DNA of 64,000 nt from Muribaculaceae bacterium (GTDB lineage: Bacteria; Bacteroidota; Bacteroidia; Bacteroidales; Muribaculaceae). The stretch covers positions 5,248 to 69,247 of the forward strand of contig JAFZAC010000031.1 of assembly GCA_017548365.1 (NCBI GenBank). The letters are read 5' to 3'. Made by a program: the position numbers and the translations under genes. Each line of letters starts with the position of its first letter. Position 1 is the first letter of the stretch. The notes beneath the pieces were generated by a model. That model ran no database searches and was not told the DNA's origin. It was given only the letters and a program-made list of their open reading frames with translations. Positions 60,950-62,450 of this stretch are shown piece after piece.

Positions 60950-61268
60950 CTCCTCCGCAGGAGCCCCCCACGCCCTGTGGAGCGACTCCGTAAAACCGAT
61001 TTTTCTGTTTGCGGAATATGCAAGGAGCAAGGCGAATGTGCGGTGGATGTGTTGACGTGCGTGAGAGAACCTTTGACGCAGGAAAAGGTTTCGCTCGCGC
61101 GTGTCGGCTCCGCTTTCAAGACAGAACCGTGTCAAGCTCGCTTGACTTGGTTTGTCGTACATTATTCACACGTCAGGCGATACTATTCATCTGCTACGTC
61201 CCGATGTGCGGTGACCGACAGGTGTTATACCAGCTATGCTGTCGTAAACCGAGTGAGACACGCAGTAT

Positions 61269-61722
61269 CGAACACTTATCTCTCCTCGCCTGGGCGCAGA
61301 AGTATGAAGGTGGCCAATGCAGAGCCTGCCCGACGAGAGCGCAGCGTGCATCTCGATAAGCGTAGGAAGAGTGTGCCGCAAGGCGAGCCCACGTGTGGCG
61401 GTGGCTTCAGCCAAGCTCGGGACGAAGGCAGTAAGCAGGTGCAACGAAGCGCAGTAGGCGTAGCGACCAGCGACGATACCCGACGGCGACGCAGGAGTCT
61501 CGGGTGTCGGCGCGTCATGGGAGCCTCGCCCACGCAGCGTAGTGCACCGGCGCTGACAAGTCTGGAGCGTCCCCCACACTTGGACCAAGCTCACCGACGG
61601 ACATGGCGCAACCCGTAACAACGAGAAGGGTTGCGCTGTGTCCGGGCACTTTCTTCCGCAGCGACAATCGAGATAGCCGAGTCAGGCGGCGAAGCATACC
61701 TAGTCACCGCCTTGTGTGCGCC
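61269..61722 (+). other. Structured non-coding repeat unit, copy A
   Basis: Shares a colinear series of identical blocks with 61868-62335, including 32 nt ACCCGACGGCGACGCAGGAGTCTCGGGTGTCG; contains 10- and 17-bp stems. Confidence 0.8.
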
Positions 61723-61867
61723 CATGCGAGGTGGTCTTGAGGGAAGCGGTAGGCGAAGCCGTCATCGCAGAGGGGTGGGCACGTGGGGCTTTCCGGCTCG
61801 TGCCGCTTGCGGTCGCGAGCTGGATCTGCCGGTGACTCGTCACCGTTAAAGACCTCGTGAGGCATGC

Positions 61868-62335
61868 CGAACACCTCTCTCCCCTGAGCGCCGGCGCAAT
61901 AGTGGGCGGTGGTGTGGGCGCAGCCTGCCAAGCGAGAGTGAAACGTGCGCCCGAGACAGCTGAAAGGATTAGTGTGCCGTAAGGACTGCCCCCTCATGCC
62001 GATGGCACCAGCCAAGCTCGAGACGTAAGACAGACGAAGGCAGAGGGAGGCGACGAAGTGGAGTGAGTGAAGCGACCAGCGGTGGCACCCGACGGCGACG
62101 CAGGAGTCTCGGGTGTCGCCGCGATAAGGGAGCCTTGCGCACGCAGCGTAGCGCCGTACTCTGTCAAGCTGTCGAGTCTGGAGCGTTCGCCTTGAGGGGT
62201 GCCAGCAGTCCGACGTTCATAGCGCAACCCGCAACGAAGTGAAGGGTTGCGGTGTAACCTGGCACTTTCATCCGCAGCCGTCGAGAGCGCCGAGCCTGGC
62301 GGCGAAGCCTTTTTTTGTCACCGTCCGTGTGCGCC
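61868..62335 (+). other. Structured non-coding repeat unit, copy B
   Basis: Offset of 599-616 nt from copy A; the same stems are retained with wobble substitutions. Confidence 0.8.
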
Positions 62336-62450
62336 GAGGCGCAGGGGGTCTATGAGTATAAGAGTTGATGCAGCAAAAGCTGCTGATTGCGTCCGATTGT
62401 GCGGTGCCAGCAGTGAATAAGAAGGTGAATTTCTGTTGTGAAAAATGTGT

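Follow-up and report, generated by a model that had tools for sequence, protein, structure and literature searches.

The window analysed here is a 64,000-nt stretch of a Muribaculaceae bacterium genome (GenBank assembly GCA_017548365.1, contig JAFZAC010000031.1, positions 5,248 to 69,247 of the forward strand), and it carries near its right end an element of ~1.45 kb (~60960-62420) whose + strand is a conserved folded single strand. The element comprises a leader, two diverged tandem units of ~500 nt and a short hairpin tail, and its G+C content is 63% versus 47% for the window. It is linked to a small convergent gene, which we call gene X, lies in mobile elements and is present in RNA libraries. 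The element is probably a free-standing, functional, large structured non-coding RNA made from the + strand and representing an uncatalogued modular family, and the interval 61261-62344, which holds most of the two units, very probably belongs to RNA rather than to single-stranded DNA (ssDNA).

The fold was examined in an alignment of 15 homologous units, including A+T-richer ones at 47% G+C, which were alignable over their full length. RNAalifold gave a consensus of 84 pairs, 47 of them with compensatory double changes, and a fuller consensus comprised 140 pairs in 19 helices (85.4% paired, multi-branched), in which a long-range helix closes each unit into a domain of its own. In the fuller fold, 69 pairs and 275 cells had changed on both sides; column shuffles gave 52.6±3.7 pairs and 101±8.5 cells, and the observed values exceeded those of all 500 shuffles. 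When the 3' partners were slid by 1-3 columns, only 14-29 such pairs remained. In the window copy, structured unit 1 (61245..61750, + strand; alignment A2 and consensus fold) is closed by a helix joining ~61283-61300 to 61714-61733, and structured unit 2 (61844..62363, + strand; repeats, alignments A1 and A2, and a constrained fold) is its diverged tandem copy, ~73-83% identical in blocks, with direct repeats D1-D4 and D7 spaced 601-616 nt. The linker between them (61751..61843, + strand) contains local hairpins, including the GGCGAAGCC mini-hairpin at 61752, as seen from the sequence, the motif list and the fold. A coding reading of the element was rejected, as its longest open reading frame (ORF; 213 aa) does not stay open in the copy on another contig of the same genome (C25; 94% identity) and matches no Pfam family. 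The element is thus a conserved, covariation-supported multi-helix structure of more than ~500 nt without coding capacity.

A conserved feature of the fold is a 9-nt loop, GACGCAGGA, which occupies the same column in 13 of the 15 units and is displayed on three to five hairpins per element, with covarying stems (ACCCGA/UCGGGU, ACCAAA/UUUGGU, UCCCAA/UUGGG, AACCUUU/AAAGGUU and AACCGC/GUCGGUU). In unit 1 it lies at 61488-61496, on the module hairpin at ~61470-61513, and in unit 2 at 62097-62105. A third copy is found at 61075-61083, on a covarying hairpin (61063-61096) of the leader domain (60967..61244, + strand), which is common to all element types and is 83-91% identical to the leaders of the two other copies in this genome; the stem AACCUUU/AAAGGUU of this hairpin becomes AACCGC/GUCGGUU in the phage-type loci, while the loop is unchanged. 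The 3' tail (62364..62420, + strand) carries a hairpin, GCAGC-AAAA-GCUGC (~62371-62384), which covaries with GCAGAU-UC-AUCUGC in the relative G121 (alignment A1), and a 17-nt repeat of a leader segment (repeat D6; 62390-62406 matches 61197-61213). A kissing interaction of the CGCAGGA loop with UCCUGCG was considered and dropped, because this complement is buried in covariation-supported helices 4 and 5 in some relatives and is absent from the window.

The + strand was identified as the folding strand from wobble pairs and loop composition. In the core module, the best-defined hairpin, G-U exceeded A-C by 64:8 across 27 sequences, and the corresponding ratios were 30:3 for helix 17, 23:0 for helix 8 and 9:0 for helix 14. 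The unpaired positions are 61% purine, and the + strand loops are GCAA and GUAA tetraloops and GNA loops, which would become pyrimidine loops if read on the other strand. Folding of the single sequence under RNA rules gave -293.7 kcal/mol (z-score, z, -5.5) for the + strand and -259.9 (z -2.6) for the - strand, whereas the values under DNA rules were -142.2 (z -3.2) and -132.8 (z -2.6), respectively. The advantage of the + strand was thus 34 kcal/mol under RNA rules versus 9 under DNA rules, a shrinkage that is expected if G-U pairs matter.

The interval had been singled out by a sequence-only reading, which had counted by hand about 25 CG[A/C/T]AG pentamers on the + strand and no CTNCG. An exact count upheld this tally, with 25 CG[ACT]AG (14 CGCAG, 7 CGAAG and 4 CGTAG; CGGAG 0) versus 0 CTNCG in 61261-62344, and all nine of the mini-hairpins that it had listed were located where it had placed them. 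Closure into mini-hairpins, noted by that reading for many of the motifs, is open to only part of them: the flanks were Watson-Crick complementary in 11 of the 25 and G-T complementary in 2, with C-GNA-G on one strand only, compared with ~6.7 and ~2.8 expected by chance from base composition, so that only about half of the motifs can close with at least 2 bp and the remainder cannot. The excess itself was robust to local composition. Dinucleotide-preserving shuffles (n=2000) gave 10.9±3.0 CGNAG (maximum 21) and 5.4±2.2 CTNCG (zero in 0.25%), and a second-order Markov model gave 13.0±3.4 and 4.3±2.1; disappearance of the excess under such a correction had been named beforehand as grounds for abandoning the claim. 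The sole background that reached the observed level was a third-order Markov model (21.7 CGNAG), in which the motif is already contained. CGNAG was also, by a wide margin, the most strand-asymmetric gapped pentamer of the interval, the runner-up differing by 11.

The sequence-only reading had also asked whether similar skews are common in ordinary coding DNA of this genome, and they are not. Across 14,790 windows of 1084 nt in the 3.0-Mb assembly, the difference CGNAG minus CTNCG had a mean of 0.0 and a standard deviation of 2.45, and the three most extreme windows were the three copies of the element: +22 for contig C28 (the copy described here), -17 for C11, which lies in the opposite orientation, and +15 for C25. 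The fourth most skewed window (C3:7201-8285, locus L142; 13:0, +13) is part of a long opposite-strand ORF (more than 826 aa), indicating that a moderate CGNAG skew can arise in coding DNA. Among 20 family members, the folding-strand ratio of CGNAG to CTNCG was 429:133. A Bacteroidales 23S rRNA locus showed a ratio of 30:13 at about one-third of the density, indicating that a sense-strand excess is normal for folded RNA and that 25:0 is an extreme case. As a practical point, a strand-exclusive CGNAG excess is an inexpensive marker of which strand is sense in a G+C-rich transcript that folds, and does not indicate ssDNA.

To locate the motifs in the fold, the consensus structure was projected onto both units and the columns were checked in the alignment. 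About 10 of the 25 CGNAG are in or at hairpin tips. At one of these, the cap GCGCAGC at 61339 is replaced in relatives by GUGAAAC, GCGAAGC or GCGCCAGC, so that a GNA triloop swaps with a GNNA tetraloop (GCCA) while the closing pair goes from C-G to U-A. The GACGCAGGA loop accounts for further motifs of this tip group. Six others are in symmetric 3x3 internal loops, in which C GUA G at 61361 faces C GCA G at 61657, the motif at 61919 faces that at 62303, and CGAAG at 61690 faces AGA; the geometry of these loops probably gives two sheared G-A pairs flanking a central mismatch. The remaining motifs are at helix ends, in junctions or in an expansion specific to unit 1 (61440-61465). The common rule is a helix end in C-G capped by G...A, and this is a conserved structural feature. 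The CGNAG excess would then be a by-product of the build, in which G+C-rich helices often end in C-G with G-N-A stacked on top, probably via a sheared G-A pair, and the complement CTNCG would be avoided because the loops are purine-rich.

The assembly contains two further copies of the element, the C25 copy (contig end), which is also tandem, and the C11 copy (contig start), a more diverged form with five modules. About 30 further loci were obtained by pattern scans and nhmmer screening, every one of them from ruminant gut; the loose metagenome pattern by itself gave mostly chance matches in soil, from which the true members were sorted out by nhmmer. The metagenomes came from buffalo, yak, goat, sheep and cattle, the metagenome-assembled genomes were labelled Muribaculaceae, Sodaliphilus, "Porphyromonadaceae" or "Prevotellaceae", and three IMG/VR viral contigs carry the element. 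Among the relatives found, the family thus appears confined to ruminant-gut Bacteroidales. The element is rare: when 400 evenly sampled Bacteroidales genomes were scanned with a covariance model of the 83-nt core hairpin (R1), this genome alone matched, three of 200 genomes from the same bacterial family, all of one genus, matched at the DNA level, and BLAST against annotated plasmid and phage collections gave no match; with matches so sparse, cultured and annotated relatives were uninformative.

Most relatives belong to siphovirus-like prophages, where they separate the lysis block from the tape-measure gene; these phage-type loci hold an element of ~2 kb with four or five modules. In L132, L020 and L025, typical tailed-phage genes surround the element: on one side the lysis block, made up of an amidase or endolysin gene followed by gene X, and on the other the tape-measure gene. 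The element is antisense to both, and the C11 and C25 copies adjoin tape-measure genes that share 87-90% identity with the L025 gene. Gene X nearly always accompanies the element, converging on its 3' end in at least 16 loci. It encodes a 76-aa orphan protein (MTQQFF...EMIYDTVMGW) with an invariant C-terminal half, CK.ALE.IV..LA.K.DA.L...SE.IYDT.M.W, which matched no Pfam, NCBIfam or PHROG family and formed only 10 clusters among 5.8 billion proteins; a low-confidence secondary-structure prediction gave four strands followed by two helices. In the window, the C-terminal part of gene X occupies 63915..64000 on the - strand and continues to the window-equivalent position 64142, as judged from the ORF in the related locus L027 (160-390), where an AAA_14/DUF4143 ATPase gene follows it.

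The window copy resides in a different setting, an island adjacent to a tRNA-Lys gene (56198-56270) with the gene order 293-aa ORF, HTH_17, DUF3987, AEP-type primase, 89-aa ORF, element, cargo genes and gene X. The genes from the excisionase-like HTH_17 gene to the 89-aa ORF (57752..60771; Pfam, NCBIfam) are on the + strand, which is also the folding strand, and the primase carries BT4734-like_N and PriCT_2 domains. Up to the contig ends, neither flank of the island showed an integrase or relaxase gene. Island and phage do not share the ORF that lies upstream of the element. The element and convergent gene X form a cassette that is shared between prophages and the primase island in the same cell. 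Because two prophages of the same genome carry the same RNA cassette, the island could be a phage satellite, and the sharing offers a possible handle on phage-satellite relations in gut Bacteroidales.

Contigs covering the gene X-element block of L025 (~2350-4930) were present in five metatranscriptomes (X44-X48) from three studies; one contig of 1238 nt had a depth of 8 in a library of 110 Mb, and depths of 17-20 were reached in a library of 298 Mb. Nothing from the adjacent tape-measure or endolysin genes was found in four of the five; in X48, trace pieces of the lysis-side flank only were present, at a depth below 1.5. Four RNA runs contained pieces 95-98% identical to 61212-61583 and 62052-62346, with the primase gene present only as 40-nt scraps, and X44, X45, X47 and X32 contained the phage-type element with window-type units absent. 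In four phage-type loci, a perfect Bacteroidetes promoter, TTTG-N19-TACCTTTG, is present on the folding strand within an A+T-rich insert of ~75-130 nt (L025, ~4470-4600 on the - strand; L020; L022; L065), and a variant is found in L017. The hairpin of this insert is present in the C11 copy, where the promoter is absent. The promoter-hairpin insert is either a tiny small-RNA unit or an attenuator inside the element. A second, different A+T-rich insertion inside the element was seen in L021 (~5820-6000), bracketed by the inverted repeat GGGGGTGTTCTATAAATT...GAATTTATAGAACGCCCCC; it looks like a miniature transposable element.

Several points weigh against a free-standing RNA made from the + strand. 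When pairs predicted from both strands were used, the strand test was much weaker (G-U versus A-C of 100:78 or 20:22), and because this cruder test is unclear, the strand call rests on the well-defined local hairpins and on loop chemistry. Covariation and G-T wobble alone cannot separate RNA from folded ssDNA. The RNA data all consist of unstranded assembled contigs at low depth, by which the strand and ends of the transcript are not fixed, and because the cassette is mosaic, with loose ends at 2351 and 4930, the missing RNA flanks may partly be different flanks. A hairpin, UCUGCG...CGCAGA, with a U-run follows the phage-type promoter by ~35 nt, and this promoter may drive only a small RNA. 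No canonical Bacteroidetes promoter was found on either strand around the window copy, and the terminator-like double hairpin at the left border faces the opposite strand. The AlphaFold model of gene X had a predicted local distance difference test (pLDDT) score of 54, too poor for a structure search, and any function of the RNA is one that we purely infer.

These points have to be set beside the other explanations of the same data. The sequence-only reading had proposed that the + strand is exposed as ssDNA, in a rolling-circle or conjugative intermediate, and that GNA mini-hairpins protect it, exclude single-strand-binding protein or recruit primase or RNA polymerase; a satellite replication intermediate would be a further variant of this model. 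It had chosen the correct folding strand, and G-N-A on C-G is indeed conserved, but the step from the motif to ssDNA and not RNA was unsupported: G-N-A on C-G forms a stable structure in RNA as well as in DNA, and the motif alone therefore cannot decide between them. Hairpins of the d(GCGAAGC) type are exceptionally stable in DNA, which would favour the proposal, as would the complementary flanks of about half of the CGNAG; many of the motifs, however, are in internal loops or long-range helices and are not free mini-hairpins. Likewise, a folded DNA strand could show covariation and G-T wobble, and the + strand fold with DNA parameters still beats shuffles, but the advantage of that strand is smaller under DNA than under RNA rules. 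Whereas the window element is directly downstream of the AEP-type primase and the helicase-like DUF3987 gene, most members are flanked by the lysis and tail genes of tailed double-stranded DNA (dsDNA) prophages and lack a neighbouring primase gene, and in such prophages an ssDNA stage is not obvious. Neither the island nor any annotated related locus showed a relaxase, Rep/HUH or oriT partner next to the element, which speaks against an intermediate of rolling-circle replication or conjugation. The element, at 1.4-2 kb and with several closed multi-branch domains, is far beyond the known ssi, sso or Frpo signals, and it is present in metatranscriptomes. We therefore regard exposure as ssDNA as quite unlikely.

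A structured part of a longer transcript deserves weighing as well: the element could be transcribed as an untranslated region, an insulator or roadblock, or a regulator acting in antisense on gene X and the cargo genes. Terminator-like hairpins do bracket the cassette, with oppositely oriented units on either side, gene X is covered together with the element in the RNA libraries, and the island copy follows the primase operon in the same orientation. A simple insulator would nevertheless need neither conserved multi-branch domains nor invariant loops on covarying stems nor the tandem duplication of a 500-nt domain, and we consider this explanation unlikely. Highly improbable is a dsDNA cis site shared by a helper phage and a satellite-like island, such as pac/cos, an origin or a protein-binding array, as it leaves unexplained the 69 compensatory pairs and the one-strand wobble excess of 64:8. 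The size of 1.4-2 kb is very large for a site, and terminase sites are not usually located between lysis and tape-measure genes, where most relatives lie. What such a site would account for is that the same cassette, at 94% identity, is carried by the C25 prophage and the C28 primase island of one genome, given that satellites borrow helper cis sites in such a way, and that the palindrome GTCAAGC/GCTTGAC of the leader resembles boxes between the replication genes of the island (59349-59587).

A stable non-coding RNA would, in our preferred reading, be expressed from lysogens out of a moron-like slot, and the island copy would be transcribed when polymerases reading the primase operon, which has the same orientation, run on into it. 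Like ROOL and GOLLD, the RNA may serve as a scaffold or form a particle; its repeated GACGCAGGA loops could dock a protein, for which gene X would be the obvious candidate, or make RNA-RNA contacts, and the C-G/G-A punctuation would give rigid, nuclease-resistant helix ends. As a bolder and rather doubtful extension, the giant modular siphophage RNA (1.4-2 kb) and the gene X product might form a ribonucleoprotein or self-assembling particle, and the satellite-like island with its captured cassette might sense, mimic or exploit the helper phage through this RNA.

None of the 4227 Rfam 15 models matched 60967-62420 or the phage-type locus in a cmscan search that admitted E values up to 1; apart from a sub-threshold RT-5 match at the module border, whatever else scored was at chance level. 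We did not find the element described in the literature. The closest analogues appear to be ROOL and GOLLD, which are phage- or prophage-borne, ornate, covariation-supported multi-branch RNAs of several hundred nucleotides or more, with no function known. The element is likewise phage- or prophage-borne, ornate, covariation-supported and seen in community RNA. It differs from them in its host phylum, Bacteroidota, in its modular or tandem build, with two units here and four or five modules in phage-type loci, and in its tight linkage to a convergent 76-aa gene; an adjacent tRNA island is not a regular feature of it. ROOL was first found in rumen metagenomes (bioRxiv 10.1101/2024.12.08.627333). 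Membership in ROOL (RF03087) or GOLLD (RF01998) was rejected because the covariance models gave no match. The element would, if it is such an RNA, represent a large phage-borne class from Bacteroidota outside every Rfam 15 family, with features that ease its study: a genetic partner in gene X, an invariant displayed loop, and natural tandem-unit and five-module variants. To our knowledge, large ornate bacterial RNAs are very few (OLE, GOLLD, ROOL, raiA and HEARO), with mostly unknown functions, and each new class has so far been informative.

Known single-strand initiation signals, such as the complementary-strand origins of G4 and phiX174, plasmid ssi, sso and Frpo, measure ~100-300 nt and belong to replicons with a proven ssDNA stage. 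The element resembles them in its C-GNA-G closed by G-C pairs, its strict single-strand polarity and, in the window, an adjoining primase gene. It lacks their compactness, with 1.45 kb here, ~2 kb in phage-type loci and 140 pairs per unit, and unlike them it resides for the most part in prophages of tailed dsDNA phages and turns up in RNA libraries. A short GGA-containing loop on several hairpins (here A-CGCAGGA) is also typical of Csr/Rsm sponges such as CsrB and RsmZ; in the element, three to five copies of the loop are embedded in a large closed fold rather than in a simple string of hairpins. A search of the genome for CsrA (PF02599) found none, and gene X has no CsrA signature. A Csr-type sponge is unlikely in a genome with no CsrA, and this candidate was rejected.

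The left border of the conserved module (60873..60966, - strand) consists of a G+C-rich palindrome with 25-nt arms (inverted repeat, 60908-60957), a second hairpin and a T-run, which together read like an intrinsic terminator on the - strand. The C25 copy is homologous from 60896 onward, placing the left border of the cassette at ~60896-60966. The layout of two hairpins and a T-run, seen also at L011 (~5600-5700) and L012 (~2190-2290), recurs in the C25 and C11 copies, where the second hairpin differs in sequence. These hairpins could be a small - strand RNA or an insulator ahead of the tape-measure operon. The Rfam model RT-5 (RF03026) matched 60873-60966 on the - strand weakly (28.6 bits versus a gathering threshold of 45.7, E 0.026). 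The two hairpins and terminator of the border resemble RT-5, with a good fit to its 5' GCNCCUGCGG segment, but the match is sub-threshold and restricted to the module border, outside 61261-62344. There was no RT-5 match elsewhere in the genome, and no reverse transcriptase gene was seen in the annotated region ~54100-64000 or within 3 kb past the right end of the window.

The leader also contains a palindrome of the TGTCAA/TTGACA type, GTCAAGC-TC-GCTTGAC (~61132-61149), which may be an operator for a shared regulator. In phage-type leaders this palindrome reads TGTCAAAC..GTTTGACT. Two cargo genes (62451..63884, - strand; CarboxypepD_reg-like and TonB_C by Pfam) are inserted between the element and gene X. 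Among the related loci they are found only in L023 and L026, gene X directly following the element elsewhere. The first ~36 codons (63777-63884) of the listed 260-aa cargo ORF are conserved intergenic DNA beside gene X in many loci, and its true start is probably the ATG at ~63764. A hairpin, CAATCCTCC-GAGC-AGGAGGATTG, precedes gene X at ~63862-63886. Just past the 89-aa ORF, a 40-nt piece (60795-60834) reached a depth of up to 31 in several unrelated runs; it was joined to unlike flanks on both sides and is some widely shared short sequence.

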